NCBI GenBank assembly: GCA_963814275.1
Contig: CAWFCE010000002.1
Coordinates: 1,195,263-1,259,262 of the forward strand
Source of the DNA: Candidatus Parcubacteria bacterium
GTDB taxonomy: Bacteria; Patescibacteriota; Patescibacteriia; Patescibacteriales; UBA12075
Length of the DNA stretch: 64,000 nt
Reading direction: 5' to 3'
The translations under genes and the position numbers were made by a program. This document shows, in pieces, positions 25,781 to 41,924 of this stretch. The notes below the pieces were generated by a model, which had not been told where the DNA came from, searched no databases, and worked only from the letters and a program-made list of their open reading frames with translations. Numbering within the stretch: position 1 is the stretch's first letter; each line of letters opens with the position of its first letter.

Positions 25781-25850
25781 ACCTTAATTAGCTAACATAT
25801 TTATATAATAATTTTAACTAATTTTTAACAAAAAATCAACAAGTTCAGAT

Positions 25851-25864: not shown

Positions 25865-25902
25865 GAAATAATTAAATTATTTTCTGCTACGCAGAAAAAT
25901 TA

Positions 25903-27126: not shown

Positions 27127-27162
27127 TAATAACTCGCTTCGCTCGTTGAATTTAATTACATC

Positions 27163-27254
27163 ATCTAACAGCGTGTATACGGTTCGCGCTTGGCTATCGC
27201 CAAATGCTCACCCAAATTTGCTTCGCAAACTTCGTATACACACGAACGTTAGGC
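27163..27254 (+). repeat. attC-like site 1
   Basis: R'' ATCTAAC (27163-69) is the reverse complement of the upstream GTTAGAT. It is followed by stem GTGTATACG / CGTATACAC, GGTTCG, hairpin H1 TTGGC-TATC-GCCAA, CACCCAAATT, hairpin TTTGC-TTCG-CAAA and ACTTCG. R' is GTTAGGC (27248-54). Confidence 0.75.
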
Positions 27255-27318
27255 GCAACAATAAAAAGCCTCTTTAATTAATTTAATAATTTTGGCAATT
27301 TATTTGCCCAATAAAACT

Positions 27319-27702
27319 ATGATAAAACCAGACCAAAATTTAGGAAAATTTTTTTCCAAAGAAGACCAATCCATTGAAAAGGAAACTGATTTAAAACAAC
27401 TTCAAGATTTCGCCGTATTATACCATGAAAAAAACATGCCTGAAGATCAGGAGAAAAAATTTATTTCATTGGCGCAAAAATACATAGACGAGAATCATGA
27501 TGGAACATACTATAATGAAGGCAATACAGATTATATTTATGTGCAACTTCCAAACGGACTATACTTAGAAGCTGATGCACATCTCAGAAGTAACACCTTT
27601 TATTTTTCCGGAGTACTATCAAAAGAAGATGCAGAAAAAAGAATAGACATGTTAGCAAAACAACGGGAAGAAGATATAAAAGCAGCTTTAGATAAAGAAT
27701 AA
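27319..27702 (+). CDS. hypothetical protein (cassette 2)
   Basis: ATG at 27319. The track start at 27292 reads through the cassette inverted repeat. 127 aa. Confidence 0.5.
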   Translation: MIKPDQNLGKFFSKEDQSIEKETDLKQLQDFAVLYHEKNMPEDQEKKFISLAQKYIDENHDGTYYNEGNTDYIYVQLPNGLYLEADAHLRSNTFYFSGVLSKEDAEKRIDMLAKQREEDIKAALDKE

Positions 27703-27842
27703 ACAAATTGCCAAAATTAATTTAAATAGCGGAGGAGGCTTTTTATTACTCGCTCCACTCCGTTCCGCGCCGCGCTGCGCTCTCACCCTCAAATTTTATG
27801 ATTATTAACTTTAATAAGGTATAAAATTTGAGTCTTCGGGGC

Positions 27843-27941
27843 GTATAACAACGCGATATACGGTTCGGCCCTCGGCCCGGGCCTCACCCAAATTGCAATC
27901 CCCTTCGGGTCTTGCAACTTCGTATATCGGTGATGTTGTGT
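27843..27941 (+). repeat. attC-like site 2
   Basis: Degenerate R'' GTATAAC; CGATATACGG / CGTATATCGG stems; GGTTCG; H1 GGCCC-TCG-GCCCGGGCC; CACCCAAATT; H2 GCAATCCCC-TTCG-GGTCTTGC; ACTTCG. R' is GTTGTGT (27935-41). Near-identical to site 14 except for H2. Preceded by an extra hairpin module at 27749-27842. Confidence 0.7.
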
Positions 27942-28006
27942 GAAATAATTAAATTATTTTTGCTCCGCAAAAATTGTTAGGGCAAATTTATTTAATCTTT
28001 AATCTT

Positions 28007-28456
28007 ATGAAACTCTATCATGGTTCACCAAATAGTTTTGATACAATTCGTAAAAGTCAGGCGCAAGCAGGTGATGATATTAAAGTGCCAGATGATGAAT
28101 TATTAAACGCGATTTATTTAACCCCAAATTATGAATTTGCTTTGGCCATCGCTTCGATGCCGGAAGGTGCTGCCAACATCGACAATGAAACCAAAACAAT
28201 CAAGTTTGAAAATCCTGAAGCATTCGACCCAGAAAAAGAAGTTTATATTTATGAAGTTGATAGTGAATTAATCCCGAAAGAAAATTTAAAAGAAGTTGAC
28301 GAGCTTCAAATTGCGATTTTAAACACCGATGAAATAAAGCCAACAATAAAACATGTTTGCAAAGCTGGTGATGTTGAGAAATATTATGAAATAAAAAAAG
28401 AAATTTTAGAGGCTAAAAACGAAACTAAAATATCACCTGAGTTCAAGATTAAATAA
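28007..28456 (+). CDS. hypothetical protein (cassette 3)
   Basis: ATG at 28007 (MKLYHGSPNSF). The track start at 27974 lies in the inverted repeat GGGCAAATTTATTT. Confidence 0.5.
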   Translation: MKLYHGSPNSFDTIRKSQAQAGDDIKVPDDELLNAIYLTPNYEFALAIASMPEGAANIDNETKTIKFENPEAFDPEKEVYIYEVDSELIPKENLKEVDELQIAILNTDEIKPTIKHVCKAGDVEKYYEIKKEILEAKNETKISPEFKIK

Positions 28457-28500
28457 ATTTGCCCTAACAACTCGCTATCGCTCGTTAATTTAATTACATC

Positions 28501-28627
28501 ACACAACACCGCGATAAACGGCTCGGTCTTTATTCAAAGACCTCGCGCAAATTTCTGTTTTCTCTTTTGTGATTAATTTAATAATGTAGAGAAGACAGAA
28601 ACTTCGCTTCATCGGGAAACATTATGT
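28501..28627 (+). repeat. attC-like site 3
   Basis: R'' ACACAAC is the reverse complement of the upstream GTTGTGT. CCGCGATAAACGG / CGCTTCATCGGG stems with conserved bulges; GCGCAAATT; long H2 with an ATTAATTTAATAAT loop; ACTTCG. R' is ATTATGT. Confidence 0.72.
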
Positions 28628-28686
28628 GAAATATGTTTTTACTCTTGGGCTAACGCCCCAACTTTTATATAATAAATTTAATTTTT

Positions 28687-29136
28687 ATGAATAACCTAAA
28701 ATATACGAAACCACTAAACATTTTTTTGCTTTTAGTAGCTATTGTCTTATTAGCTGGTTGCTCAAATAAATATTTTGAAAAAAATTTGGAGTGCGAGAAA
28801 CAAAAAGACATGCTTCAATACAACAGCGATAATTACAGCAAGGATACCAACACAATTATCAGTAAAATTCAAAAAGTATTTTACAGTCCAAAAGCAAAAA
28901 AATGTTTGTATGTTAGTGTCTCTGCAATCGATTTTAATTCGCCTAATAATATGACTGCTCTAACACAGAAAGACTATTCAGACGGAGCAAGATGGAAGCT
29001 CCGGACAATTTCAGGCGAATTAGTTGAAGATTTGCTAATTAACACTGAAGATGAAAAAATGGCTGTTTTTGGAGCAGAGCCACAACATACAGATTCATAT
29101 GAAGAATTTGAAAACCTTGTTAAAAAATGGGAATAA
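28687..29136 (+). CDS. putative lipoprotein (cassette 4)
   Basis: 149 aa. Signal peptide with lipobox LLAGC. Confidence 0.55.
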   Translation: MNNLKYTKPLNIFLLLVAIVLLAGCSNKYFEKNLECEKQKDMLQYNSDNYSKDTNTIISKIQKVFYSPKAKKCLYVSVSAIDFNSPNNMTALTQKDYSDGARWKLRTISGELVEDLLINTEDEKMAVFGAEPQHTDSYEEFENLVKKWE

Positions 29137-29200
29137 AAAATTAAATTTATTATATAAAAGCAATTCCGCATAAGCGGAATTAAGAGCAAAAACATACATC

Positions 29201-29657
29201 ACATAACAATGAATATGCGGTTCACAAATTAAAAATTATTCCTTATAATTATCAAAATATATGAAAAAAATATTAGTATTCGCGGTCGTTGTCTTGTTAA
29301 TAATTTTAGTGTTTAGCTGGTGGAATAAATCCCCAGAAGCTACATGGCAGGGTTCCTATTACAAACACGGACAACAAGAAAACGAAGTGTATGGACCAAT
29401 TTTTACTAATTTTGATGGCTGTAAAGCGTGGGCATTAGGAAAAATAGTTTATAACGACGACACAGCTAACTGTAGTAAAAATTGTCATGACGCTTTGGGA
29501 GACGGCACCCCTGTGTGTGAGGAAGTTGTTAGAAATTGGGCACCGCTTCCGGGCAGTTACACTTTTGATAATTATAAGGAATAATTTTTAATTTGTTCAC
29601 CCAAATTTTTGTTCCGCTTCGCTACACAAAAACTTCGCATATTCATAAACGTTAGGC
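29201..29657 (+). repeat. attC-like site 4, split by a nested cassette (29225-29595)
   Basis: R'' ACATAAC matches the upstream TTATGT. L'' AATGAATATGCG (29208-19) pairs with L' CGCATATTCAT (29636-46). The insert is flanked by GTTCAC (29220-25 and 29595-600) and sits immediately 5' of CCAAATT. R' is GTTAGGC (29651-57). Confidence 0.72.
29261..29584 (+). CDS. small secreted/TM-anchored Cys-containing protein (nested cassette)
   Basis: 107 aa with an N-terminal hydrophobic helix. The ORF is bracketed by a perfect 32-bp inverted repeat (29225-29256 / 29564-29595), whose right arm encodes the last 6 codons plus the stop. Confidence 0.55.
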   Translation: MKKILVFAVVVLLIILVFSWWNKSPEATWQGSYYKHGQQENEVYGPIFTNFDGCKAWALGKIVYNDDTANCSKNCHDALGDGTPVCEEVVRNWAPLPGSYTFDNYKE

Positions 29658-29689
29658 GAAATAAATTTTTCGCTACTAATTTTAAACAT

Positions 29690-30283
29690 ATGAAAAAATT
29701 CTTTTTGGGCTTCGCAAGCTCGTTATTAATCACAATTCCCCTGATCGCTTTTTCTGCTGATTCACTGTCTACAAAACTAAAAGGAAAAATTTTGTTAGCA
29801 GTAGAAGATAAGGGTAAAACTTATTATGTCAATGAAGATGGAAACAGATACAGAATTACTGTTTCTACTGCACAAAAAATATTTGAAAAACTTGCATTGG
29901 GCATTACAAATGAAAATTTAAGTCAAATTCCAGAAAGTAACGTAGGTATCGACCCAGAAGAAAACAGCACCCAGGAAAATTGTGCTGCGCAAGAATCAGA
30001 ATTAAATGATTGGAAGAATTTGAATACAAAAAATGAAAATACCCTCAGTTCTTGCCTTAACACCCTCACTAGCTTGAAGGATTCTTATGCAGACCTAATT
30101 AACAAATACGAAGATTGCATAGGTGAGTGCAATTATGGCCCTACAGTTGATGCACTCATCGCCCAAAATAACGAGCTTGCTAAACAAAATGATGAACTTT
30201 TAGCTATATCTATTTACTGGGAAAATAGTGCTAACACATGGAAGGCTTACGCATATGGTTGCACTGGCTATACTAGTCAATAA
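29690..30283 (+). CDS. secreted protein with KGKILLxVExxGxxYYV motif (cassette 6)
   Basis: ATG at 29690 (MKKFFLGFASSLLITIPLIAFS signal peptide). The track start at 29609 reads through attC-like site 4. Confidence 0.55.
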   Translation: MKKFFLGFASSLLITIPLIAFSADSLSTKLKGKILLAVEDKGKTYYVNEDGNRYRITVSTAQKIFEKLALGITNENLSQIPESNVGIDPEENSTQENCAAQESELNDWKNLNTKNENTLSSCLNTLTSLKDSYADLINKYEDCIGECNYGPTVDALIAQNNELAKQNDELLAISIYWENSANTWKAYAYGCTGYTSQ

Positions 30284-30336
30284 AATTAGTAGCGAAAAAT
30301 TTACTCAAGGGTTCGCTCCTTGAATCCGCTCACCTC

Positions 30337-31028
30337 GCCTAACGCGGCGTATCTGGCTCCGCTGGCCGTAAAATAATTAATTTTTTTATGACGATATTAA
30401 AGCCCAGAAATAAACCTGGCTCAAATAGTTTGCAAAACAGATTAGGTGGAGCAGTTTATAATTTTCTGGACAAAGCAAAAAATAATGATAAATTTTTGTT
30501 AGACTACGAAAGGATTAAAGGTAAATGTACCTCTGGCAATTGGCAAATTAATGATTATTCTCCAATACTTTTGCCATTGGTTAAATACTATGAAAATAGC
30601 TTGTGGTTTATTTGTGATAAATTAGGCATATTTAACCAGATTAATGACGGCAAAAAACCCCATAGCTTAAGGGCATTTTTCGACACAAAAGAAACAGAAA
30701 TAAATATTTGGCTTTCTTCAAAAATTAATGATAATCTTAAATATAAAAAATTGTCCAGAAAATTATTTTCAACAATCGACGATTATGTTCAGAGAAATGA
30801 AGTTGTTCATTGCAACGAAATCATATCCTTTCCCGATTTGAGCAATTACGATAGTTTGCTTACTAAATTAAAAGAATTAGTTGAACTTTTATTTAATCAC
30901 AATTTATTACAAAAAAATTAATTATTTTACTAGCTCCGCCCAAATTTCGTTTCCGCTTTTTGTTGGCGCATCCGCGCAATTATAACAAAAAGCTACAACG
31001 AAACTTCAGATACGCCGAAATGTTATCG
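30337..31028 (+). repeat. attC-like site 6, split by a nested cassette (30363-30932)
   Basis: R'' GCCTAAC is the reverse complement of the upstream GTTAGGC. L'' GGCGTATCTG (30346-55) pairs with L' CAGATACGCC (31007-16). The direct repeat GCTCCGC occurs at 30356-62 and 30933-39, the latter abutting CCAAATTT. R' is GTTATCG (31022-28). Confidence 0.72.
30388..30921 (+). CDS. hypothetical protein (nested cassette)
   Basis: 177-aa ORF flanked by the 20-bp inverted repeat GTAAAATAATTAATTTTTTT (30368-87 / 30911-30). Confidence 0.5.
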   Translation: MTILKPRNKPGSNSLQNRLGGAVYNFLDKAKNNDKFLLDYERIKGKCTSGNWQINDYSPILLPLVKYYENSLWFICDKLGIFNQINDGKKPHSLRAFFDTKETEINIWLSSKINDNLKYKKLSRKLFSTIDDYVQRNEVVHCNEIISFPDLSNYDSLLTKLKELVELLFNHNLLQKN

Positions 31029-31120
31029 GAAATAAATTTTTTATCTTGGTGGTAATTTCAAGGTTTGCGCGTTTTGCCAAGACGAAAATTTGATTTTTTA
31101 TTTTTTAAAGAGGGGTAATT

Positions 31121-31609
31121 ATGAAATTAACCAAAGAAACTACCTCGGAAAAACTTCTTGATTTTGGCAAACAGATTTTCGAGATTTTACAAAGACTAGA
31201 TACCTCACCAATCGTTTACGGTAGTTTGGCATATTTTTATCATACGAAAGATACTAGTTTCCCGATTAGAGACATTGATTTGCTTTTGCCAGAATCAAAT
31301 TTTTCAAAAATATCTGAAATGCTCGACAAAGAAAAAAATGTCACATACAATGTGATGCCATATCATAGTATAGAGGTATTCAGAGACGGTCTCGAAATCG
31401 ACATCGATTCTATCGAACATTTTTTAGATCCGAGATCTAGAGAATTTCATAAATCAACGATAAACGACCTCGATTTGAATATTTTAAATAAAGAGTCCTT
31501 GGCAAGCATTTACAAAGAAGCCTTGGATAACATGCCGCAAGAGAAAAAACTCGATGAAAAAAGAAATAAGTATCAAAAGAAGTTAGACAATCTCCAAAAA
31601 TTACTTTAA
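31121..31609 (+). CDS. hypothetical protein, possible minimal nucleotidyltransferase fold (cassette 8)
   Basis: 162 aa with SD AAGAGGGG. YGSLAYFYH...IRDIDLLLPE resembles the GS...DxD motif of Pol-beta-type nucleotidyltransferases; this is a weak call. Confidence 0.4.
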   Translation: MKLTKETTSEKLLDFGKQIFEILQRLDTSPIVYGSLAYFYHTKDTSFPIRDIDLLLPESNFSKISEMLDKEKNVTYNVMPYHSIEVFRDGLEIDIDSIEHFLDPRSREFHKSTINDLDLNILNKESLASIYKEALDNMPQEKKLDEKRNKYQKKLDNLQKLL

Positions 31610-31734
31610 TAAGGAGTTTTTATTTTTGGCCATTCACCCCTACCCCTCTGGCCAAAAATAAAAACAAAAAATCAAATTTTCTTTTAACGTAGAAAAGCTA
31701 TCGGCCAGTAGCATGGAGATAAAAAATTTACATC

Positions 31735-31921
31735 CGATAACACGGCACATGCGGTTCAGAAATTTCTCGTTTTTTAGACTTTTCAATTAAGGTATGAGAA
31801 ATTTCCTCTCCCAAATTGCGCTGACTATATGGAAAGTTTAGTGGTATAATCAAGTTAAGCGATAATCAATAATTTTATCAATAAATAACGGCGCAACTTC
31901 GCATGTGCCGATACGTTAAAT
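31735..31921 (+). repeat. attC-like site 8
   Basis: R'' CGATAAC is the reverse complement of the upstream GTTATCG. GGCACATGCGG / CGCATGTGCC stems; GGTTCA; H1 GAAATTTCTC...GAGAAATTTC; CTCTCCCAAATT; long H2; AACTTCG. R' is GTTAAAT (31915-21). Confidence 0.72.
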
Positions 31922-32016
31922 GAAATTGGCTAATTGTTTAGTGTACACCATAGATGACACTATAGTGTACACTAATGTGGTAAATCAAAGTTAATCGCGA
32001 GCCAACTTCACTTAAC
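31916..32016 (+). other. conserved ORF-less cassette, copy 1 of 3
   Basis: GAAATTGGCT...TTAATCGCGAGCCAACTTC-ACTTAAC with internal palindrome TAGTGTACAC-N16-GTGTACACTA. Homologous copies are at 59441-59542 and 61297-61396. Confidence 0.6.
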
Positions 32017-32534
32017 AGGTGATATGCGGTTACAATTAAGGAAATATAGAATATAATTTTTACTAAAAAAATCCCCACGAACTGAATCGCAGGGACACGT
32101 TGGTTTTAGTCCATCTTTGGAAATTACACAATAAGGATTTTTGCTCTGCCTTCGACATTGTGAAAACCGATAAACACAGTATTGCGTCCGGTTTCCTTTA
32201 AACGTTTCAATGCTAACACGGCAGCTTCGGTACCAACGGTTTTTTCAAAATCTGATATGAGCTTTATGGCATCATCAATCGGATAATCATCAACTTCCAC
32301 TCCAACCATTGGTCCGTGCTTTTCTGGGTCATATTCTGATATCGGCGCTGTCTTTAATTCCATATTCCCTCCTTTTTATGAATTGTTGCTAGAAACTTAG
32401 CACGTGAATGCCAAAAACGCAAGTAAAAATTATTTTCTATATTTCTTTAATCTCCACCCAAATTCCTGCCCCTCTTTTTAGGATAAATTAATAATGAGTC
32501 GGGGCAGAAACTTCGCATATCAAAAATGTTAGGC
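32010..32534 (+). repeat. attC-like site 9, split by a nested reverse-oriented cassette (32034-32451)
   Basis: R'' ACTTAAC. L'' GGTGATATGCG (32018-28) pairs with L' CGCATATCA (32513-21). ACCCAAATT and the H2 stem CCTGCCCC...GGGGCAG follow. R' is GTTAGGC (32528-34). This is a paralog of the array 2 site at 59536-60215. Confidence 0.7.
32124..32363 (-). CDS. hypothetical 79-aa protein (reverse-oriented nested cassette)
   Basis: Strong SD (AGGAGGG) 7 nt upstream of the ATG on the minus strand. The cassette is bounded by a roughly 29-bp inverted repeat (32034-63 / 32423-51). Confidence 0.55.
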   Translation of the reverse strand: MELKTAPISEYDPEKHGPMVGVEVDDYPIDDAIKLISDFEKTVGTEAAVLALKRLKETGRNTVFIGFHNVEGRAKILIV

Positions 32535-32559
32535 GAAATTTATTTTCAATTTAAAATTT

Positions 32560-33396
32560 ATGAGTTCGGATACTATAACCAATTACTACGATTACACCCT
32601 GCCATTTTATAGATTTTTTTATCACGGCAAGAGCAATGCCGTTCATTATGGCTTTTGGAACAATGGAGTTAAAAATCACCAGGAAGCTTTATTGAACGTA
32701 AATAAATTTTTGGCTGACACGGTTAAGATAAAATCAGATGATAGTGTTTTAGACGCGGGTTGCGGAATTGGAGGTAGCGCGATTTGGCTGGCACAGAATT
32801 ACAATGTTCGAGTTGATGGCATAACCATAAGTGAAAAACAGTTAGAGGAAGCCAAAAATTTATCTACCAAATATAATGTTGACCATATCGTAAATTTTTA
32901 TCAAAGAAATTTTTTAAATACCAAATTTAACGATAGTTCCTATAACATAGTTTTGGCGATTGAAAGCGTGTGCCATGCCGAGAACAAAAAGGACTTTATC
33001 AAAGAAGCGTACCGGGTACTTAAAAACGGCGGACGATTGATTGTTGATGATGGATTTCTTTTGCGAAGTCCGAAAAATAAACACGAGCAAAAAGATTTAA
33101 ATGCATTTTTAGAGGGCATGGCACTCTCCAATCTTGCTTTTGAAACAGACTTTAAAAAATCTCTTGAAGATGTTGGATTTAAAAATATAAAAATTTACGA
33201 CAAGGTCAACGAAACGATTCCTTCTTCAAAAAAAATCTATAAAATGTCAATTTTTAGTTATCCTTTATCTATAATTCTCGAAAAACTAAAACTTACACCA
33301 CCATTATTAACCAAAAATAATTTAGCGGGAATAACACAATACAGGATAATTAAAAATGGGATAATGGGACACCGAGTATTTTACGCTGAAAAATAA
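32560..33396 (+). CDS. class I SAM-dependent methyltransferase (cassette 11)
   Basis: 278 aa. Motif I VLDAGCGIGGSAIWLA; post-I and motif II/III spacing (LKNGGRLIVDD). Confidence 0.8.
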   Translation: MSSDTITNYYDYTLPFYRFFYHGKSNAVHYGFWNNGVKNHQEALLNVNKFLADTVKIKSDDSVLDAGCGIGGSAIWLAQNYNVRVDGITISEKQLEEAKNLSTKYNVDHIVNFYQRNFLNTKFNDSSYNIVLAIESVCHAENKKDFIKEAYRVLKNGGRLIVDDGFLLRSPKNKHEQKDLNAFLEGMALSNLAFETDFKKSLEDVGFKNIKIYDKVNETIPSSKKIYKMSIFSYPLSIILEKLKLTPPLLTKNNLAGITQYRIIKNGIMGHRVFYAEK

Positions 33397-33419
33397 ATTT
33401 TAAATTGAAAATAAACATC

Positions 33420-33573
33420 GCCTAACACCGCGATAAGCGGCTCCAGAAAAGTTCCTTAATTAAATATAATAATGAGTAAACTTTTCTTCCGACCCAAATT
33501 TCTATTTTTCTTTTCTTATTAATTTTAATATTGAAAAAAAATAGAAACTTCGCTTCATCGGGAAACGTTGTGT
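33420..33573 (+). repeat. attC-like site 11
   Basis: R'' GCCTAAC is the reverse complement of the upstream GTTAGGC. CCGCGATAAGCGG / CGCTTCATCGGG stems; GGCTCC; H1 33445-87; CCCAAATT 33493-500; H2 33501-45; AACTTCG 33546-52. R' is GTTGTGT (33567-73). Confidence 0.75.
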
Positions 33574-33639
33574 GAAATAATGTCCTTAAACAAAATATTT
33601 TAGGTGGTGCTAATTCAAAAGAAAAAGGAGGGAGGTATT

Positions 33640-33852
33640 ATGGTAATCATCAATAAACTTGGCAGATTATTAAAAGACCATTCAGAAACTTTTATTCTTT
33701 TTTTAGCGGGTATAATATTAACCCTATACGGGATTTTGAAAGCATTGCCTTTTATTGATTGGGCGCAGAAAGGTCAATTTTCGAGTGAGTTTACTATTTT
33801 ACTTGGAATACTTCTGCTATTCTTTGGACTTCGTTCATTATTAAACAAATAA
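33640..33852 (+). CDS. small two-TM membrane protein (cassette 12)
   Basis: ATG at 33640 preceded by AAGGAGGGAGG. 70 aa. Confidence 0.55.
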   Translation: MVIINKLGRLLKDHSETFILFLAGIILTLYGILKALPFIDWAQKGQFSSEFTILLGILLLFFGLRSLLNK

Positions 33853-33955
33853 ATTGATTATTCTCGCGGGGAACACTTTCCCCGCACCACCTAAAATATT
33901 TTGTTAGCTTCTATTCAGAAGCTGTTTGCTCAATCGCAAACAAGGACATTACATC

Positions 33956-34073
33956 ACACAACAACGCGACAAGCGATTCGGTCTTTATTCAAAGACCTCA
34001 CTCAAATTTTTGAAATGATTATTAACTTTAATAATGAATTTCAAAAACTTCGCTTCGTCGGTATACGTTATAT
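33956..34073 (+). repeat. attC-like site 12
   Basis: R'' ACACAAC is the reverse complement of the upstream GTTGTGT. H1 GGTCTTTATTCAAAGACC; CACTCAAATT; H2 TTTGAAATG...ATTTCAAA; ACTTCG. R' is GTTATAT (34067-73). Confidence 0.72.
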
Positions 34074-34090
34074 GAAATTAAAAATTCCCT

Positions 34091-34603
34091 ATGAGCATTA
34101 AACAAGATTGGAAAAGTCCCAAAGTTGATATAAAAGATAGTCCGATTGGAGGAAAAGGCATTTTTGCTAATTCCAATATTAAACGAGGTGAAAAAATCAT
34201 CGTCTGGGGAGGAAATTATACTGATGCTGTTGGTGCGCAAAAAGCAAAAGAAAAAGGTATGCTAGTATTTCAATGGGACGATGACCTTTATAGCTACGAA
34301 GATAGAGGGAAAGACGATGGGTACTACATAAACCATTCCTGTAACCCTAATCTATGGATGACAGATGCATACACTTTAACAGCTATGAGAGATATTAATG
34401 CTGGTGAAGAAATTACAATAGATTATGCGTTGTTCGAGGAAGATGATTATATTTCAAAATGGAAATGCAACTGCGGTTCATCGTTATGCCGCGGCCGGGT
34501 TACAGGAGAGGATTGGAAAAGCATAGTGCTACAAAAACGCTATAAAGGACATTTTTCACCTCTCTTAAATAAACGGATCCAGAAATTACAAGATAATAAA
34601 TAA
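34091..34603 (+). CDS. SET domain protein (cassette 13)
   Basis: 170 aa. YINHSCNPN and EEITIDY SET motifs plus the post-SET CNCGSSLCRG. Confidence 0.8.
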   Translation: MSIKQDWKSPKVDIKDSPIGGKGIFANSNIKRGEKIIVWGGNYTDAVGAQKAKEKGMLVFQWDDDLYSYEDRGKDDGYYINHSCNPNLWMTDAYTLTAMRDINAGEEITIDYALFEEDDYISKWKCNCGSSLCRGRVTGEDWKSIVLQKRYKGHFSPLLNKRIQKLQDNK

Positions 34604-34627
34604 TTCACGGCGGGAATTTTTAACATC

Positions 34628-34772
34628 ATATAACACCGCGATAAGCGGTTCCAGAAAATTTCCTTTATTAATGATAATAATGAATAAAATTTTCTTCCAC
34701 CCAAATTTTGCAAATGAATATTAATTTTAATAAGGTATTTGCAAAACTTCGCTTCATCGGGAAACGTTAGGC
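34628..34772 (+). repeat. attC-like site 13
   Basis: R'' ATATAAC is the reverse complement of the upstream GTTATAT. Same family as sites 3, 11 and 17. R' is GTTAGGC (34766-72). Confidence 0.75.
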
Positions 34773-34800
34773 GAAATAATTTATCAATAATTAAATTTCT

Positions 34801-35150
34801 ATGGGAATAGACAACAAGCCTTTTACGGCAGAGCAACTCCAGGAACAGATTAATTTTTTTGGAATTGATTGCACTGTAAAAAAACACCTGGAGAAAAATA
34901 TATATTTTTTAGTTGTGACTCTATGGAAGACGCGGAATCAATAGTAGTAAGTTTTTGGGGAAAAAGAGATCAATCAGTTGTTGACGGCCTTAACCGAGGC
35001 ATGCTAAAACCTAGTCATGAAATTACTACAGGTGCCAGAACGGAAATCACTGAAATCGGAGGCAAAGCAACATTAATTATTAGTGAAAACGGTGCTCCAC
35101 TTTCGGAAAAAACAATTTCAGCATTAGAAGATGGAGGATTTACAATTTAA
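34801..35150 (+). pseudogene. hypothetical cassette gene with a frame break at an A7 run (cassette 14)
   Basis: The ATG at 34801 opens MGIDNKPFTAEQLQEQINFFGIDCTVKK. After the A7 run (about 34877-34883) the reading continues in another frame as TPGEKYIFFSCDSMEDAES... to 35150; one extra A would fuse the two frames. Alternatively an intact ORF could start at ATG 34923. Confidence 0.4.
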
Positions 35151-35232
35151 TTATTGATAAATTACTCAAGGGGGCGCTGCGCTTCAGGTCTGCCTTTTAC
35201 AATTAATAATATTGAGAGCAGACCTGACCCTC

Positions 35233-35331
35233 GCCTAACAACGCGATATGCGGTTCGGCCCTCGGCTCGGGCCTCACCCAAATTTTCTTTCACTTCGTTC
35301 AAGAAAACTTCGTATATCGGTGATGTTGTAC
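35233..35331 (+). repeat. attC-like site 14
   Basis: R'' GCCTAAC is the reverse complement of the upstream GTTAGGC. Near-identical to site 2 apart from H2. R' is GTTGTAC (35325-31). Preceded by a hairpin module at 35165-35232. Confidence 0.75.
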
Positions 35332-35359
35332 GAAATAAAAATTTAATTATTTTGCTACC

Positions 35360-36079
35360 ATGAAATTCAAGGAAGCATACAAACACATAAACCCCACCGA
35401 ATACATAAATATTTTTTCCAACCCTCAATGGTATTTGGAAATACAAGCTGAACTAAAGGATTTTTTTTATGATTATGACGGCAATAAGGATAACAAATCG
35501 CAAGAATGGCTTGAAAAAAGGAAAGAATTTGTAAAAATGGTTTGTGAACTTTTAGAAGCTGGCAAAGTTGCTCTTGGCGACTCTGGTATAAACTGGGATA
35601 AAGACCGTTTACCCATAGATACAATTGTTATACATCATACGAGCACGCCATCAGACACCCCCGTTATAGCCATTGATGCACTGGGATTGATTCGTTTGTA
35701 TGCACCGAATTACAGCAAAAAAAATGAGGAGCAATTTGGCCAGCCAATATGGTCAAACCATTTTTGCAAAAATCAACAAACATTCGTTGCTTATCATTAC
35801 ATAATCAGACAGGATGGTTCTTTTGAACACATATTACAAGATGACCAAATAGGTTGGCATTGTGGCAATTGGGATTATAACTGCAGAAGTATTGCGATTT
35901 GTTTTCTTGGTGATTTAAAAGAAAAAAAACCGACTGAAAAAGCACTTCAAACGGCGAATGAAATCATAAAAAAATATCCAAATTGTAATATATTCGGTCA
36001 TAGAGAAATTAAACCCACAACAACTTGCCCAGGTAATCTGTTTCTAGGGAAAGAGGGTTGGAAAACGACATATTTCTAA
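35360..36079 (+). CDS. N-acetylmuramoyl-L-alanine amidase (amidase_2/PGRP fold) (cassette 15)
   Basis: 239 aa. IVIHHTSTP...AYHYIIRQDG...GWHCGNWDYNCRSIAICFLG...GHREI...TCPG. Confidence 0.75.
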   Translation: MKFKEAYKHINPTEYINIFSNPQWYLEIQAELKDFFYDYDGNKDNKSQEWLEKRKEFVKMVCELLEAGKVALGDSGINWDKDRLPIDTIVIHHTSTPSDTPVIAIDALGLIRLYAPNYSKKNEEQFGQPIWSNHFCKNQQTFVAYHYIIRQDGSFEHILQDDQIGWHCGNWDYNCRSIAICFLGDLKEKKPTEKALQTANEIIKKYPNCNIFGHREIKPTTTCPGNLFLGKEGWKTTYF

Positions 36080-36107
36080 GAACGCAAAATAATTAAATTT
36101 TTACATC

Positions 36108-36186
36108 GTACAACACTGAATATCTGGTTCCGTTATCGCTCCACCCAAATTGCTGACGCAACTTCAGATATTCAGAAACGTTATCG
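36108..36186 (+). repeat. attC-like site 15 (shortest, 79 bp)
   Basis: R'' GTACAAC is the reverse complement of the upstream GTTGTAC. CTGAATATCTGG / CAGATATTCAG stems; GGTTCC; CCACCCAAATT; hairpin GCTGACGCAA; CTTCAG. R' is GTTATCG (36180-86). Confidence 0.75.
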
Positions 36187-36253
36187 GAAATATTGCTCAT
36201 TAAAATATTTTTTTGTAAGAGGGCTTGAAATTAACTATCAAAGGAGGATTGTA

Positions 36254-36544
36254 ATGAAGAAAAAATCTTTACACAACGTTGGAGATTTGGTCGTATTTAA
36301 TGAAACCAAAGAATTTGGGAACAAAAATGACCGTATATTTCACATCCACGCCATTCGATATGGCAAATGCACTGGAATTCCTAAAAAACAATATTGGTTC
36401 GCTGGTTTCCTGCTGGAAATTGGAAAACACGAGAGTGAGGGTTTACCTCAAATTCCAGTTTTTGCAACAACCTTAACCAACGCTTCCGAAAATCAATTGA
36501 GTTCATTAGAGCATCTACAATGCCGTTTCAACCCATGGAAATAA
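36254..36544 (+). CDS. hypothetical protein (cassette 16)
   Basis: 96 aa. SD AAAGGAGGA upstream of the ATG. Confidence 0.5.
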   Translation: MKKKSLHNVGDLVVFNETKEFGNKNDRIFHIHAIRYGKCTGIPKKQYWFAGFLLEIGKHESEGLPQIPVFATTLTNASENQLSSLEHLQCRFNPWK

Positions 36545-36651
36545 TCTACGCCCTTTGTCTTCGCGGGAATAAACAATATTCCCGCCCTCTTTTCAAAAAA
36601 ATATTTTTGCTGGCTTATCAGCCAACGGCTATCACTAATGAGCAATATATC

Positions 36652-36759
36652 CGATAACAGCACGCTATCCGGTTCGCGCTTGCCCTGTCGGGCAAATGCT
36701 CACCCAAATCCCGACTCCGATTCACTACATCGGGACTTCGGATATCGGCATATGTTATG
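36652..36759 (+). repeat. attC-like site 16
   Basis: R'' CGATAAC is the reverse complement of the upstream GTTATCG. Family shared with sites 18, 23 and 24 (GCACG.TATCCGG ... CCGATATC). H1 stem TTGCCC/GGGCAA. R' is GTTATGT (36753-59). Confidence 0.75.
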
Positions 36760-36815
36760 TGAAATTTAAGTTGTGGCCTTAATTAAATTTAATATATTCA
36801 ATAACTTCTCTCTTA

Positions 36816-37208
36816 ATGATAAAACAAGTTTCATTGTTAATATTATTTGATAAAGATAAGCGCATTTTATTGCAACATCGTTCCGAAGATCAAGAAGGAT
36901 TACCTGGCTATTGGGCTTTTTTTGGTGGTCATATTGAAAACGGCGAAACACCAGAGCAGGCATTACTGAGAGAGTCTGAGGAGGAATTAGAGTATATGCC
37001 GGAAAACCCCCGCCTAGTTATGACTCAGGATTTTATGCACGACAATATACGACATAGAAAATACGTTTATTTAGAGGAATATAATAACAGCAAACTTGTT
37101 CAACACGAGGGTCAAGCTATGGGATGGTACCATTTAGGCGAAATACAAAAATTAAAAATGGTAGACCACGACCGAGAAGTTATTGATTATATTAAAAACA
37201 AATATTGA
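36816..37208 (+). CDS. NUDIX hydrolase (cassette 17; duplicated at 60271-60663)
   Basis: 130 aa. Nudix box [23 protein letters not shown]. Protein sequence identical to the array 2 copy. Confidence 0.85.
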
Positions 37209-37227
37209 GTGCCACAACTTAAACATC

Positions 37228-37433
37228 ACATAACACCGCGATAAGCGGCTCCAGAAAATTTTCTTTATTAATATTAAACAGGAATAAAATTTTCTACCGG
37301 CCCAAATTTCATTTCAGTTTTCTGATGAACGTTCAATAAACGTTCATCGCTCCACGATTGTCTGATATTGATAATAATCGATTCTAAAACGGAAAACTGA
37401 AGTGAAACTTCGCTTCATCGGGAAATGTTAAAT
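37228..37433 (+). repeat. attC-like site 17 (206 bp)
   Basis: R'' ACATAAC is the reverse complement of the upstream GTTATGT. Long branched H2. R' is GTTAAAT (37427-33). Duplicated with the NUDIX cassette in array 2. Confidence 0.72.
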
Positions 37434-37497
37434 GAAATATCTAAAACAAATTCCCTATCGGGAATTTTATCTGCAAGTTTATAATTAATTTTCTTAT

Positions 37498-38160
37498 ATG
37501 AAAAACAAATTTTTTTTACTATTAATCTTAGTCATTATCTTAGCTGGGTGCAATAAACAAAACACAAGTATTAATTTAACCCCAGATAATCAAACTAAAA
37601 ATATTTCAAACTCAACAAACGATACTAATACATCAATACAGGAAAACGTAGAAGCAAAAAACAATATTCCCGAAGAAAAACCAACAGAAATTAAGCAAGA
37701 AGACGATATAAAAATACAAAATATTAATAATAAAAAAAGTTATCAAAATTTAACAACTGGGTTTAGCTTAGAATTTCCAGAGGCATTAATATTCAGGAAT
37801 AACGCTTTTTACACCGAGGTAAACTGGGACGGTATTGTAAATAAAAAAACTGACCATATGTACGTTCCTGAATTTACTGTCCGTTTTGCATCTGATGTGT
37901 CATTAGATGAATTTATTTATAATTCGATTAACCCAAATTATAAAAATCATTTTAATTCAAACAAAAACAAAATCAAAGAACAAAAAACAATAGGAAATAA
38001 TAAATTCTTTATGATAAACAGTAAAAATTTTGATAGCAATGGTTGTAGTTACTATATAGAAAATAATAAAAATATAATGAGATTAAGTACCGCATATAAC
38101 TGCGGTGAAAACGAATTAATAGAAAACGTTTTGATATCTATTAAAACAACAGAAAATTAA
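37498..38160 (+). CDS. putative lipoprotein (cassette 18)
   Basis: 220 aa. Signal peptide with lipobox ILAGC; Asn/Lys-rich. Confidence 0.55.
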   Translation: MKNKFFLLLILVIILAGCNKQNTSINLTPDNQTKNISNSTNDTNTSIQENVEAKNNIPEEKPTEIKQEDDIKIQNINNKKSYQNLTTGFSLEFPEALIFRNNAFYTEVNWDGIVNKKTDHMYVPEFTVRFASDVSLDEFIYNSINPNYKNHFNSNKNKIKEQKTIGNNKFFMINSKNFDSNGCSYYIENNKNIMRLSTAYNCGENELIENVLISIKTTEN

Positions 38161-38212
38161 TTATAAACTTGCAGATTATTTTTGCTATCGCAAAAATGGT
38201 TTTAGATACAGC

Positions 38213-38318
38213 ACATAACAGCACGATATCCGGTTCGCGCTTTCCTTCGGAAAATGCTCACGCAAATCCCGACTCCGTTTCACTGCGTCGGGACTTCGGA
38301 TATCGGCATACGTTAGGC
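38213..38318 (+). repeat. attC-like site 18
   Basis: R'' ACATAAC has 2 mismatches to the upstream GTTAAAT. Paralog of site 16 with a compensatory H1 stem TTTCC/GGAAA. R' is GTTAGGC (38312-18). Confidence 0.68.
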
Positions 38319-38347
38319 GAAATTTAAAATTTATCTTTATCTCAATT

Positions 38348-38638
38348 ATGTCATTAAACAAACTAAAACATTTTAAAAAACCTTGGGTAATTGGTCTTAT
38401 TGTTGGTATAATCCTAGCCATCGGAAATATATTACTTGCCGGAATTCCAGGGATTATCTTATTTGAAAACACTTTAGATCCGGTACAATCAATTTCTGGT
38501 TGTGCAGGAGAAGACTGTTGGGGTCCATCTGCACTTTATGGTAGTGTAATTTTCTTAATTGTCGGGTTTTTATTTGGTTACCTTGTTGGAATATTTATAA
38601 ATAGATCCTTGAGCAAAGTAGATAAAGATAAATTTTAA
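38348..38638 (+). CDS. small membrane protein (cassette 19)
   Basis: 96 aa, 3 TM helices. The 3' end (GATAAAGATAAATTTTAA) is part of the cassette inverted repeat. Confidence 0.5.
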   Translation: MSLNKLKHFKKPWVIGLIVGIILAIGNILLAGIPGIILFENTLDPVQSISGCAGEDCWGPSALYGSVIFLIVGFLFGYLVGIFINRSLSKVDKDKF

Positions 38639-38712
38639 ACTCAAGGGGGCGCTGCGCTTTCGTCCCGCCCTTTGAATAATATAATTTAATATTGTAGGCG
38701 TGACGAACCCTC

Positions 38713-38811
38713 GCCTAACACCGAGTATACGGAAAAAGGCTCAACTCGCCTTTTTCCCAAATTCGCCTTCGTTTCACTCCGGCGAACTTCGTATACTCGG
38801 AAACGTTATCG
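38713..38811 (+). repeat. attC-like site 19
   Basis: R'' GCCTAAC is the reverse complement of the upstream GTTAGGC. CCGAGTATACGG / CGTATACTCGG stems; H1 AAAAAGGC...GCCTTTTT; CCCAAATT. R' is GTTATCG (38805-11). Preceded by a hairpin module at 38640-38712. Confidence 0.75.
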
Positions 38812-38845
38812 GAAATTACACTTTTTAAAAAATAATTTTATTATT

Positions 38846-39511
38846 ATGAACCATAAACTAAAACCCTTAATCTATAGTTTGATATTTGCTACACCAATAT
38901 ATTTATATGCCACATACGTGTTTAGCTATATTCCAGATTATGATAGTAGCTTTCCTTTTGACAAAGAAGCGTTTTTCTTTGTCCCAGTCTTAACCTATGG
39001 CATCTCAATATTGCTATTCCACATAATTTATATGAAAGCTACAATAAATATTGTTAAAGGTTTTAACGAATACAAAAGAAACAACAAAAAAAAGTATTTA
39101 TATCAAAATTTATTCACCTTTTTGATAGTTTTATCATTCGCCCACCTGTCTTTGGTGGCGCCAAGATACATGCAATCAATAATATTCGTACTTTATTTAA
39201 TAATTTATATTTTAATTATAAAAATCCCCAATCAATACCTTCGCGCTGAATTCAATAACTATAAAAAATATTTTAGAGATGCTAATATATTCAACTTTGT
39301 ATTATCATTCGTGGTTCTTATAAATACTTTTTTATTTATTAGATTCGCAGGAAATATTACCGGAAACGAGGTAGGTGACTTTTTGGCCCTAGTTTATACG
39401 AGTGGATTTTTGTTGTTTCTTTTGTTTGCTTCATTTGTCGTAAATGTATTTATATTACTAATTCATAAAAATTATTTAACAAAAAAACATAACCAACCAC
39501 AAGGTTCATAA
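38846..39511 (+). CDS. polytopic membrane protein (cassette 20)
   Basis: 221 aa with about 6 TM helices. Confidence 0.5.
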   Translation: MNHKLKPLIYSLIFATPIYLYATYVFSYIPDYDSSFPFDKEAFFFVPVLTYGISILLFHIIYMKATINIVKGFNEYKRNNKKKYLYQNLFTFLIVLSFAHLSLVAPRYMQSIIFVLYLIIYILIIKIPNQYLRAEFNNYKKYFRDANIFNFVLSFVVLINTFLFIRFAGNITGNEVGDFLALVYTSGFLLFLLFASFVVNVFILLIHKNYLTKKHNQPQGS

Positions 39512-39589
39512 TAATAAAATTATTTCTTTATTTGGGCTATTCGCCCAAATGTCCTTCCCTATCGGTCAGGACTAAAAAGTGTAACTGTC

Positions 39590-39726
39590 CGATAACAGCG
39601 TATATCAGGTTCCGACTCCCCTGTCGGTGAGCCTCCACCCAAATTCGGTCTCCATAATTTGCTGGTGCTCCGCACAATTTTAGAAAATTACTACGACTGT
39701 ACTTCTAATATACGCATATGTTAGAT
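39590..39726 (+). repeat. attC-like site 20
   Basis: R'' CGATAAC is the reverse complement of the upstream GTTATCG. GGTTCC; CCACCCAAATT. R' is GTTAGAT (39720-26). Confidence 0.7.
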
Positions 39727-39763
39727 GAAATGACTCCATATTCATTACGTCACATCATCTAAC
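39721..39763 (+). other. minimal ORF-less cassette (43 bp)
   Basis: TTAGAT-GAAATGAC...GTCACATC-ATCTAAC: just a short inverted repeat between an R' and the next R''. Confidence 0.5.
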
Positions 39764-40325: not shown

Positions 40326-40398
40326 GAAATAAATAAATGCTTTTCGGCTAACGCCGAAAAATTATTCGGGCAAATATTTATTATTCAATACTAAAAGA

Positions 40399-40944: not shown

Positions 40945-40991
40945 AATTTGCCCAAATAATACTCGCTATCGCTCGCGAATTTATTTACATC

Positions 40992-41095
40992 AGCTAACAG
41001 CACGATATCCGGTTTGCGCTTACCTCCGGCAAACGCTCACCCAAATCCCGATATCGCTTCGCTCATCGGGACTTCGGATATCGGCAATGTTATCG
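40992..41095 (+). repeat. attC-like site 23
   Basis: R'' AGCTAAC has 1 mismatch to the upstream GTTAGAT. Family of sites 16, 18 and 24. R' is GTTATCG (41089-95). Confidence 0.7.
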
Positions 41096-41149
41096 GAAAT
41101 AGGAAAAAAAATATTTTCTTCCAGAAAATACAAATTATTTTTGAAAATT

Positions 41150-41921: not shown

Positions 41922-41924
41922 AAC

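Follow-up and report, generated by a model that had tools for sequence, protein, structure and literature searches.

Hairpins with AT-rich loops as probable accessory arms of attC-like sites in two integron-like arrays of a Parcubacteria contig

In a 64,000-nucleotide (nt) stretch of DNA from a Candidatus Parcubacteria bacterium (positions 1,195,263 to 1,259,262 of contig CAWFCE010000002.1; we call this whole stretch the window), hairpins with AT-rich loops recur at the junctions between short open reading frames (ORFs). What are these hairpins? An initial annotation suggested that they might be empty or miniature cassettes, protein-binding loops, or promoter elements. It did not recognize what hosts them, which is our main point: the hairpins lie within attC-type, single-stranded recombination sites. 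They belong, as arms, to the "variable terminal structure" at the center of these sites and, for the copies furthest upstream, to the stem that extends beyond the R'' box. We consider it likely that the hairpins are accessory arms and that their hosts are long, branched sites of the attC type in two integron-like arrays of cassettes. Coordinates are positions in the window, and features are on the plus strand unless stated otherwise.

Anatomy of the sites and of the two arrays

All of the junctions that we read share one layout: ACATC, an R'' core (xxxxAAC), a spacer, an L'' box, GGYTC, a first hairpin position (H1), TCACCCAAATT, a second hairpin position (H2), AACTTCG, an L' box, a spacer, an R' core (GTTxxxx), and GAAAT. 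In its compact form, the linker between H1 and H2 is CACCCAAATT. An optional third hairpin domain (H0) lies immediately upstream of R''. The inverted cores, xxxxAAC and GTTxxxx, correspond to R'' and R' of attC; some of them break the strict R/Y pattern (for instance, GTTCAGC). The L'' and L' boxes also pair as they do in attC, over about 10 bp (9-11 nt) in 35 distinct sites. On the 5' arm, a spacer of 1 nt adjoins the R core; on the 3' arm, the spacer has 3-4 nt.

The 154-nt site at 33420-33573, which has homologous sites in four of the loci described below (L003, L049, L079, and L124), illustrates this layout. Its R'' (GCCTAAC, 33420-33426) is the reverse complement of the previous junction's R', and its L'' is CGATAAGCG (33431-33439). 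H1 (33445-33487) has the stem AGAAAAGTT/AACTTTTCT and a 25-nt loop, CCTTAATTAAATATAATAATGAGTA, and folds with a z score of -2.8; H2 (33499-33547) has the stem TTTCTATTTTTCTT/AAAAAAAATAGAAA and a 21-nt loop, TTCTTATTAATTTTAATATTG, with a z score of -3.1. (All fold z scores are from DNA folding and are relative to dinucleotide shuffles.) Between the two hairpins is the linker CCCAAAT (33493-33499), which is conserved at most junctions in the window and whose AAAT begins the H2 stem. The site ends with L' (CGCTTCATCG, 33551-33560) and R' (GTTGTGT, 33567-33573). When 33415-33578 is folded, H1 and H2 are robust helices on either strand. In the bottom-strand fold of another site with its H0 domain, 27745-27946, the R/L stem closes a multibranch junction with H2 and H1, and the H0 hairpin is separate. 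The center of the site is a three-way junction that has H1 and H2 as its arms.

The sequence of the cores links each site to its neighbor. In 18 of the 28 cassettes, R'' is the exact 7-mer reverse complement of the R' of the preceding junction, which is a signature of integron cassettes. (Pairing R' with the R'' of the same junction failed, since R'' matches the preceding junction's R'.) Furthermore, both arrays carry a 673-bp cassette (36760-37433 and 60215-60888) that consists of a NUDIX gene and a 206-nt site, with about 98% identity between the copies. The identity runs from the GTT of R' to GTT(A) of the R' that follows; the copies have different neighbors and unrelated sites upstream. 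Because the identity starts and stops at the GTT of R', the mobile unit appears to be an ORF with its downstream site, with crossover in R'.

Each cassette ORF is also bracketed by its own inverted repeat of 20-40 bp, which extends the R-box stem past R' and R''. Examples are 25865-25920/27110-27162, 33574-33610/33886-33955, and 34773-34800/35143-35165. In a single-stranded cassette, pairing of this inverted repeat would leave the ORF as a pinched-off loop.

The layout around the sites is that of an integron platform. The window consists of host DNA of 45-50% G+C, but the G+C content is 33% in two blocks, one at about 25.86-43.0 kb (array 1) and one from 58.9 kb to the end (array 2). Each block is a series of short plus-strand ORFs that starts just downstream of a minus-strand tyrosine recombinase gene, and most of the cassette ORFs are on the plus strand. 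At both loci we found a minus-strand integrase, an attI-like insertion point, and a co-oriented array on the plus strand. Both attI-like regions end with ...ATAACCAGTT (25855-25860 and 58894-58899), with the insertion point directly after; the first cassette of each array follows directly after this sequence (...CCAGTT), with no site between. The contig thus carries two integron-like platforms 33 kb apart.

The recombinase of array 1 (24920-25780, minus strand) has 286 amino acids, and that of array 2 (57970-58782, minus strand) has 270 amino acids and is of the same type. For both proteins, the top-scoring NCBIfam model is "XerA / integron integrase," and the integron-integrase model (TIGR02249) matches in two separate pieces and under its cutoff. 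Among solved structures, the array 1 recombinase aligns end to end with XerA/XerC-like proteins. When it is aligned to VchIntIA (2a3v), 31 query residues stand in place of 73 residues of the chain, so this Xer-like enzyme lacks the IntI-specific additional domain. The closest relatives of the integrase, at 57-61% identity, are from two Candidatus Falkowbacteria metagenome-assembled genomes (MAGs) and one MAG that is labeled as Gammaproteobacteria; a look-up by exact sequence gave no match. The relative in the latter (CAYNBD010000008.1, our locus L002) is 57% identical, and its label may be a binning error or a sign of a wider distribution.

How many hairpins of the annotated kind are there? 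We defined class A as hairpins with loops of 17-29 nt that are about 85% AT, and a systematic scan of the window found 23 of them: 5 at H0, 6 at H1, and 12 at H2. All of them lie within the two cassette arrays, where each occupies one of three fixed positions in a site, always in the same orientation, and none are in the 42 kb of host DNA. At H0 in array 1, they are at 27788-27832 (upstream of the R'' at 27843, with the loop GATTATTAACTTTAATAAGGT and a z score of -5.8), 35184-35227 (z = -5.1), and 38659-38707 (found by folding and by the scan); array 2 has 59302-59339 (folding) and 62195-62232 (scan). At H1, besides 33445-33487, array 1 has 31759-31805 (with near-identical copies in L054 and L087), 34653-34695 (between TTCC and TCCA of the scaffold), and 37253-37295, whose duplicate is at 60708-60750 in the array 2 copy of the shared cassette. 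Around the other H1 copy in array 2, at 61169-61216, the scaffold is conserved, but the stem (CCATCTCGC/GCGGGATTCC) is unrelated. At H2, besides 33499-33547, array 1 has 28552-28601 and 41978-42024 (both by folding and by the scan), 32463-32510 (a homologue of 60144-60191 in array 2), 34703-34749 (12 pairs), and, from the scan, 34004-34050, 40257-40303, and 42897-42945; the scan also found 61225-61276, 61700-61754, and 62291-62331 in array 2.

All ten of the hairpins that the initial annotation cited exist: nine of its ten intervals fold (z scores of -1.7 to -5.8), but the interval 34712-34748 lacks the 5' arm of the actual hairpin, which is at 34703-34749. The annotation placed hairpins at up to three positions per junction; no junction in the window has an AT-loop hairpin in all three.

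The H0 domains span 27745-27842, 35165-35232, 38635-38712, 59270-59347, and 62160-62245, and H0 domains are present at 35 of 187 junctions in the sampled loci. The domain opens with CGCTGCGCT, which is a GCGCAGC mini-hairpin on the bottom strand; there is a compensated variant, CGTTGCACT. In one case (27770-27842), the domain looks as if the linker-H2-ACTTCG portion of the site had been duplicated in part.

Covariation, strand, and loop sequence

The scaffold is not limited to this contig. A Falkowbacteria contig (MFGB01000010, our locus L003) has the same layout of integrase and array and the same scaffold, and its integrase is 61% identical. The scaffold is also present in at least 120 metagenome contigs, which we found with a pattern of scaffold bases only (CCCAAATT...AACTTCG...GTTNNNNGAAAT) and with the CCCAAAT linker as an anchor. 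This sample of at least 120 loci was chosen by scaffold motifs, and related sequences within it are not independent observations. Together with the window, these loci gave 218 junctions. Counting each sequence once, we obtained 188 H2 segments and 81 H1 hairpins from them.

The arms differ in their tips: class A arms have the AT-rich loop, class B is the commonest type in H2, and a few arms have long inserts. In a class B tip, a stem of 4-5 bp surrounds TCC-NN-TNC-NN-TNC. For example, the H2 at 29603-29635 is TTTGT-TCC-GC-TTC-GC-TAC-ACAAA, which includes GCGAAGC on the bottom strand. The classification of arm tips placed further class B tips at 27890-27920, 35280-35310, 36706-36738, 38264-38296, 38759-38789, 41043-41074, and 59394-59424.

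Both classes of stem covary. We aligned 31 distinct class B H2 sequences that have the same length; 98.2% of the cells are paired, as compared to 87.9% after shuffling. Double changes affect 6 of the 11 pairs, including both pairs of the inner 2-bp helix (GC/GC, AC/GT, GT/AC, and AT/AT). There are 38 double-change cells, as compared to 10.1 in the shuffles; none of the 500 shuffles was as good, and sliding the partners abolishes the pairing. Class A stems are 92-98% paired, as compared to 47-70% after columns are shuffled, but these hairpins were detected by their pairing and then sorted into sets by loop length and AT content, which inflates the percentage. Double-change cells in class A number 110 at H1 (34 after shuffling) and 87 at H2 (25 after shuffling), which bears out the earlier claim that the stems differ from copy to copy and stay complementary.

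Homologous whole sites, as defined by BLAST, have a nearly invariant scaffold and one H1 stem pair with a compensated T-A/G-C change, which is seen among the homologues of the H1 at 33445-33487. (When RNAalifold was run on the alignment of homologous sites, it recovered H1 and missed H2, because the loops are misaligned.) Entire arms are also replaced among homologous sites: H1 in 61141-61309, and H2 in 34623-34779 and in L079. The initial annotation had stated that 27843-27941 and 35233-35331 differ only by a swap of H2. The swap is real, but the two sites also differ by cassette-specific R bases and by two substitutions.

Which strand is the one that folds? On the top strand, 17 of 18 simple triloops read T-N-C, as do 36 of 39 inner triloops of the 13-nt class B loops, and none read G-N-A. 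A T-N-C triloop becomes G-N-A on the bottom strand, typically within GCGAAGC. The triplets that flank the inner helix are T-N-C on both sides, which gives GNA x GNA on the bottom strand. Both d(GCGNAGC) and G-N-A loops that are closed by C-G form exceptionally stable DNA mini-hairpins (PMC13037366, PMC3201870), and the attC sites of aadA1 and aadA7 have a GAA tip on the bottom strand (PMC2727003). The mismatches in the stems point in the same direction. On the top strand, 43 are pyrimidine-pyrimidine and 4 are purine-purine; A.C on top (G.T on the bottom) occurs 42 times and G.T on top occurs 24 times (24 and 9, respectively, in class A alone). The conserved base of H2, AAATT/AACTT, has an A.C on the top strand and a G.T on the bottom strand.

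We also computed folding energies with a nearest-neighbor model for DNA, which excludes the special stability of G-N-A and sheared G.A motifs. For H2 arms with short loops (class B), the bottom strand is better in 64 of 77 cases and the top strand in 2 of 77. For whole sites in the window, the bottom strand is more stable in 17 of 19 cases (means of -21.6 and -19.7 kcal/mol). Together, the types of triloops, the types of mismatches, and the folding energies argue that selection has acted on these structures in the form of bottom-strand DNA, as it does in integrons, rather than in the form of RNA.

The loops of class A hairpins are more similar to each other than their composition would predict. 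We scored 22 distinct loops, chosen partly by eye from the hairpin list and with the exact duplicate at 60708-60750 omitted. Their mean normalized pair score was 0.289, as compared to 0.070 for shuffled loops (z = 20) and 0.044 for segments of the arrays that are at least 80% AT (z = 13). The similarity extends across positions (z = 13.7 for H0-H2, 11.4 for H1-H2, and 6.3 for H0-H1) and depends on orientation, with a score of 0.185 against reverse complements. Thus, the initial observation of a shared AT-rich loop stands, because the similarity exceeds the expectation for AT-rich sequence against both controls.

Conservation of the loop and not of the stem is less general than the annotation implied. 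Within the window, the 5' stems are far less similar to each other (-0.107) than the loops are (0.289). In the wider family (47 H1 and 35 H2 copies), the contrast holds for H2, with identities of 0.54 for loops and 0.40 for stems (0.45 and 0.39 after shuffling, so the H2 stems are at chance level). It does not hold for H1, where the stems (0.60) are more similar than the loops (0.51), and pairs of H1 copies with near-identical loops have stems that are 91% identical. A class A loop has a C/T-rich 5' edge (CCTT, TTCTT), a nearly pure A/T middle, and a 3' edge that contains G (TAATAAKG and AAGGAG, or in brief AAGG/AATG). The typical loop is about 21 nt, with only A/T between the edges, and the middle shows A/T exchanges among close homologues.

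Cargo in the arms and a possible mechanism

The positions that hold AT-loop hairpins at some sites hold genes at others. In at least five cassettes in the window (29201-29657, 30337-31028, 32010-32534, 39757-40325, and 59536-60215), an ORF lies inside the site, in the H1 slot, and the same arrangement is found in seven other loci (L003, L008, L016, L059, L068, L074, and L081). In these sites, L'' and L' are exact complements of 9-11 nt across 370-570 nt, with exact 9-mers across up to 690 nt. The ORFs in the H1 slot are closed off by their own inverted repeat of 25-30 bp, and two of them encode NUDIX hydrolases. Scaffold sequence is repeated directly on both sides of the ORF arms, over 5-9 nt: CTCCG in the window, the 9-nt GGCTCCGCC in L059, and GCTYCGCC in L003.

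Two examples show how the site is maintained around the cargo. At 39757-40325, the L'' (TGTGTAACTG) pairs with L' across a NUDIX ORF (39809-40234), and the inverted repeat 39779-39806/40222-40249 closes the arm, which has the CTCCG repeats on either side. The site at 32010-32534, with a minus-strand ORF in its H1 slot, has a scaffold that is near-identical to that of 59536-60215: they share the outer arm, R''-L'', the linker, H2, and L'-R' (93 of 121 and 75 of 92 columns are identical). Their H1 cargo is unrelated, and in 59536-60215 it is a NUDIX ORF.

The H2 slot can be enlarged as well. It has a 77-nt insert at 31818-31894, and it has a 97-nt insert at 37309-37405 and 60764-60860, within which is a perfect 10-bp hairpin (GATGAACGTT-caata-AACGTTCATC).

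NUDIX hydrolase genes are recurrent cassette cargo, with four copies (36816-37208, 39809-40234, 59588-60121, and 60271-60663), and another NUDIX hydrolase gene lies in the host DNA between the arrays (45576-46097). The arrays also contain a conserved segment without an ORF between R' and R'' (31922-32009, 59447-59535, and 61303-61360, as well as about 7702-7867 in L003 and about 172-293 in L016). This segment holds a 15-bp palindrome, TTAGTGTACACCATAG/CTATAGTGTACACTAA (31938-31975), whose arms vary with compensation between copies. The segment could be an operator or a small RNA.

Are the AT-loop hairpins themselves empty or miniature cassettes, as was first proposed? They are not cassettes, because they lack R' and R'' cores and because cassette boundaries occur only at R' boxes. 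The proposal was right to the extent that they occupy fixed slots that elsewhere hold whole ORFs. Because the same slots carry ORFs (H1) or longer inserts (H2), class A hairpins are best seen as arms without cargo.

How might such arms contribute to recombination? Once a site is single-stranded, preferentially as the bottom strand, H1 and H2 would be expected to close locally and first. Their closure would shrink the center of the site, which is 60-110 nt from L'' to L' (60-600 nt over the full range), to a compact three-way junction. The L''/L' and R''/R' boxes, which are predicted to form weak and bulged helices, could then meet and form a duplex-like substrate for the adjacent tyrosine recombinase, with crossover in R'. 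H0 would play the same part in the stem that continues past R''. We therefore infer that arm folding promotes the formation of the recombinase substrate. Stem sequences would be free to drift with compensation because only pairing would matter in the arms, and whole arms could be exchanged between sites via the conserved segments of scaffold that flank them.

The tip of an arm takes one of two forms, either a very stable G-N-A mini-hairpin on the bottom strand (class B) or a loop of about 21 nt with only A/T (class A). The G-N-A tips, along with the G.A and G.T mismatches, would bias folding to the bottom strand. This bias may substitute for the read-out of extrahelical bases, which needs the IntI domain that is missing here. 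The strength of the arms may also tune how often a site folds. The least secure step concerns the class A loop: its tip may be kept unpaired and easily melted, or it may drift to A/T because it is often single-stranded. Such a drift might proceed by deamination of exposed cytosines, while partial CCTT/AAGG pairing would keep the edges.

Several points weigh against the interpretation of the hairpins as accessory arms of integron-like sites. First, when the central structure of VCR, an integron attC site, was deleted or replaced by GAA, recombination hardly changed (PMC2727003), so the arms may be dispensable for the reaction. Second, the additional IntI-specific domain near patch III, which is described as defining and is held to be necessary for an integron integrase (PMC9668308), was not found in the adjacent recombinase by comparison with 2a3v. 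Third, the extrahelical bases of attC sites belong to the R''-L'' arm, and L'' contains a conserved G on the bottom strand (PMC2727003). Here, most L boxes pair without a bulge, and the CGAT(G)AAGCG family carries its extra base on the opposite arm from attC, namely R'-L'. Because the integrase lacks the IntI domain and the extrahelical bases are absent or on the opposite arm, the rules of integrons apply by analogy. Recombination, strand choice, and folding are themselves deduced from sequence.

The remaining difficulties concern class A in particular. Besides the inflation of its pairing percentage described above, the energies of class A hairpins alone slightly favor the top strand (52 versus 24), with the two strands about equal. 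The orientation-specific pattern of the loops would not be predicted if they were pure spacers. Furthermore, the loops make no contribution to the folding energy: shuffled loops fold equally well or better (for H1, -6.44 for real loops and -6.90 for shuffled loops). We considered a hidden inner AT stem or a palindromic loop, but palindromy is at chance in H1 (z = 0.2) and weak in H2 (z = 2.4). Because the loops add no folding energy and show no palindromy beyond that of shuffled loops, something besides DNA pairing may constrain them.

Other explanations and known systems

One alternative is compatible with accessory arms, and we view it as possible rather than probable: H0, H1, and H2 might be fixed insertion points for a second, nested kind of mobility, by which modules enter and leave by a mechanism distinct from crossover in R', and the AT-loop hairpins might be unoccupied or collapsed arms. 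The ORFs in the H1 slot of window cassettes and of seven other loci fit this explanation, as do the near-identical scaffolds with unrelated H1 cargo, the swapping of arms within conserved scaffolds, the direct repeats around ORF arms (CTCCG, GGCTCCGCC, and GCTYCGCC), and the 77-nt and 97-nt inserts in the H2 slot. However, we did not find a filled and an empty arm that share one stem, the inverted repeats of the ORF arms lack the class A loop pattern, and no enzyme for a second reaction was evident among the scanned ORFs.

The short repeats that flank the hairpins do not help this alternative either. The initial annotation held that the H1 hairpins are flanked by direct repeats in the same way as the nested cassettes and cited TTCCA at 34649 and 34696. 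The first copy is there and the second is at 34695, but the repeats are part of a constant flank, T(T/C)C...TC(N), that surrounds all H1 arms whatever they contain, and on the bottom strand these TCC/TC flanks resemble the GNA x GNA loops of class B. This constancy also led us to reject target site duplication around the hairpins. In addition, we considered whether class A loops descend from collapsed ORF arms, as the arm at 29223-29252/29567-29596 looks like the loop edges (TTCCTTATAAT...ATTATAAGGAA); the likeness is absent from nine other ORF arms, and we treated it as a coincidence.

A second alternative, which we consider unlikely, is that the integrase, a nucleoid protein, or SSB docks on the AT loop in a sequence-specific manner and controls folding or synapsis. 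This would account for the similarity beyond composition, for its dependence on orientation, and for edges (CCTT/TTCTT at the 5' end and TAATAAKG/AAGGAG at the 3' end) that folding energy does not explain; also, one type of loop is found on different stems and in different slots. On the other hand, the middle of the loop varies freely between A and T in close homologues, its length ranges from 17 to 29 nt, and we have no candidate for the protein. Half of all arms have a class B tip, so a factor that binds the AT loop cannot be essential.

Third, the annotation raised the possibility that TAATAAT or TATAAT strings in the loops are -10 elements, in duplex or presented on the hairpin, that drive the downstream cassette. 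TATAAT-like strings are indeed frequent in the loops, and cassettes without ORFs but with promoter activity are known (bioRxiv 10.1101/427781). One H2 arm does look like a promoter: the 77-nt insert at 31818-31894 contains the best promoter-like site, CTGACT-18-TATAAT with a TG (31821-31850). The TG-extended -10 of this insert (TTTAGTGNTATAAT) and its -35-like hexamer point towards the next cassette and are conserved in L087 and L054. But array 1 has 76 promoter-like sites, as compared to 70.5 ± 7.3 expected, and in a sigma-70 test of the plus strand (-35 and -10 hexamers 16-18 nt apart or a TG-extended -10, with A2 and T6 of the -10 invariant), none of the better sites lie in an AT loop; the sole convincing one is the site in the long H2 insert. 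The loops lack a conserved -35 or TG, the last T of the -10 (T6), which should be invariant, alternates between G and T (TAATAAT or TAATAAG), and the TATAAT-like string lies at no fixed distance from the conserved 3' end, with 2 to 8 nt between them. Promoters at H0 or H1 would fire into the recombination site itself, and the stem mismatches indicate bottom-strand DNA instead of a function of the top strand. Thus, the AT loops are quite improbable as promoters.

Even less likely, in our view, is a role in RNA, with the hairpins acting as stabilizers, terminators, or translational insulators of the cassette transcript. Given that most cassette ORFs are on the plus strand, the hairpins would be transcribed, and class A is marginally more stable as the top strand; the loops have stop codons in several frames and the AAGGAG that resembles a Shine-Dalgarno sequence. 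We rejected that reading of AAGGAG in the H1 loops because there is no start codon at a usable distance. No model in Rfam 15, which has no attC family, matches the window at its gathering score, and none matches array 1 even at E ≤ 1. The stems are not followed by a run of T but by CTTCG or TCCGACCC, and none of 26 terminator-like hits is a class A hairpin: one minus-strand hit, at 35232-35214, merely overlaps the 3' arm of the H0 at 35184-35227. A.C on the top strand, which RNA would not tolerate, outnumbers the G.U-type mismatch, both overall and within class A, by the counts given above, and the sister arms have DNA-specific G-N-A tips on the other strand.

Terminator-like hairpins are present in 25800-43100 at about twice the expectation (26 versus 12.8 ± 3.7); an example is at 36563-36585, directly after a cassette ORF. 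A GC-rich hairpin at 33866-33885 is also directly after a cassette ORF, but it is from the hairpin list and was not a hit in the terminator scan. A hairpin with a 21-bp stem and a 28-nt AT-rich loop, in host DNA between two minus-strand genes (56473-56544), is unrelated to the hairpins of the arrays.

The nonamer in the loop of geminivirus and CRESS virus replication origins is TAATATTAC. The origin hairpins that are nicked by HUH Rep proteins in these viruses resemble the hairpins of the arrays in having a variable, compensating stem and an AT-rich loop with a recurring motif, and TAATATT in four loops and short flanking repeats would also suit an origin or a mobile hairpin of the REP/BIME or MITE type, but we consider this highly improbable, as a scan with Pfam and NCBIfam of 26 ORFs from the arrays and 7 from the flanking host DNA (leaving out ORFs under 80 amino acids and several minus-strand ORFs) gave no HUH, Rep, or transposase gene, the host DNA has no copies in 42 kb, the position and orientation are fixed within sites for a tyrosine recombinase, the flanks are constant scaffold and not target duplications, and most loops lack the nonamer and the motif is not fixed.

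We return to attC-type sites, which the arms and their hosts resemble most broadly. Like the attC sites of integrons (such as VCR), the sites described here have inverted R''/R' cores, L''/L' boxes, an unpaired spacer, crossover in R', and units of an ORF with a downstream site; the bottom strand is favored (here probably, to judge from sequence signatures and energies), and the sites within one host are homogeneous. For large attC sites, the center has been called a "complex branched secondary structure" (PMC2727003), and we file the hairpins as a variant of this central structure. The system as a whole is filed as integron-like because the R and L boxes, the crossover in R', and the platform agree with integrons, while the extrahelical bases and the IntI domain do not. 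There are further differences. The scaffold of GGYTC-H1-TCACCCAAATT-H2-AACTTCG is conserved across genomes and metagenomes and has exchangeable arms, some sites have ORFs inside, and pairing continues past the R boxes into an inverted repeat that is specific to the cassette. Also, one spacer is 1 nt and the other is 3-4 nt.

Other systems share individual features. The class B tips and the motif at H0 read GCGAAGC, GCGTAGC, GCGGAGC, or GCGCAGC on the bottom strand, as in d(GCGNAGC)/G-N-A mini-hairpins; however, the AT-loop hairpins do not have this motif, and the mini-hairpins here are embedded in GNA x GNA internal loops. Integron cassettes without ORFs but with promoters are, like these arms, noncoding modules within arrays, and the H2 insert at 31818-31894 is promoter-like. 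In contrast, those cassettes are complete and bounded by attC, whereas the hairpins lie inside the site, without boundaries of their own and without a promoter signal in the AT loop. Xer/dif systems and pdif modules have a XerA/XerC-like recombinase and genes that are bracketed by recombination sites. However, a dif-type site is a duplex of 28-30 bp, whereas the half-sites here are 60-600 nt apart and must pair by folding of the strand, and unlike Xer/dif, these arrays adjoin an attI-like site, as in integrons.

In the literature, we did not find a description of integrons in Patescibacteria or the candidate phyla radiation (CPR), or of this site scaffold; our coverage was incomplete, so this is weak evidence of novelty. 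Tentatively, this might be an undescribed and widespread integron-like system of the CPR, with a Xer-type integrase that lacks the IntI domain, a conserved three-way-junction scaffold, a nested modularity by which hairpins, regulatory inserts, or complete ORFs bracketed by inverted repeats trade places in fixed slots of the site, and an AT loop that is a sequence-specific element of empty slots (such as a nucleus for melting or a docking site).

The AT-loop hairpins on their own are a modest part of this integron-like picture. attC is a textbook case of a recombination site that is recognized by its shape and not by its sequence, and the origin of attC and how genes become attached to it are long-standing questions. 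The combination found here is unusual: a conserved, branched scaffold with interchangeable arms, genes within the site, inverted repeats around each ORF, and an integrase without a domain that was thought to be essential for reading attC. If confirmed, this would extend the definition of integrons into the candidate phyla radiation, and the natural variants of the arms would provide a way to test how the central structure tunes folding and strand choice. It may also hint at how cassettes are built.

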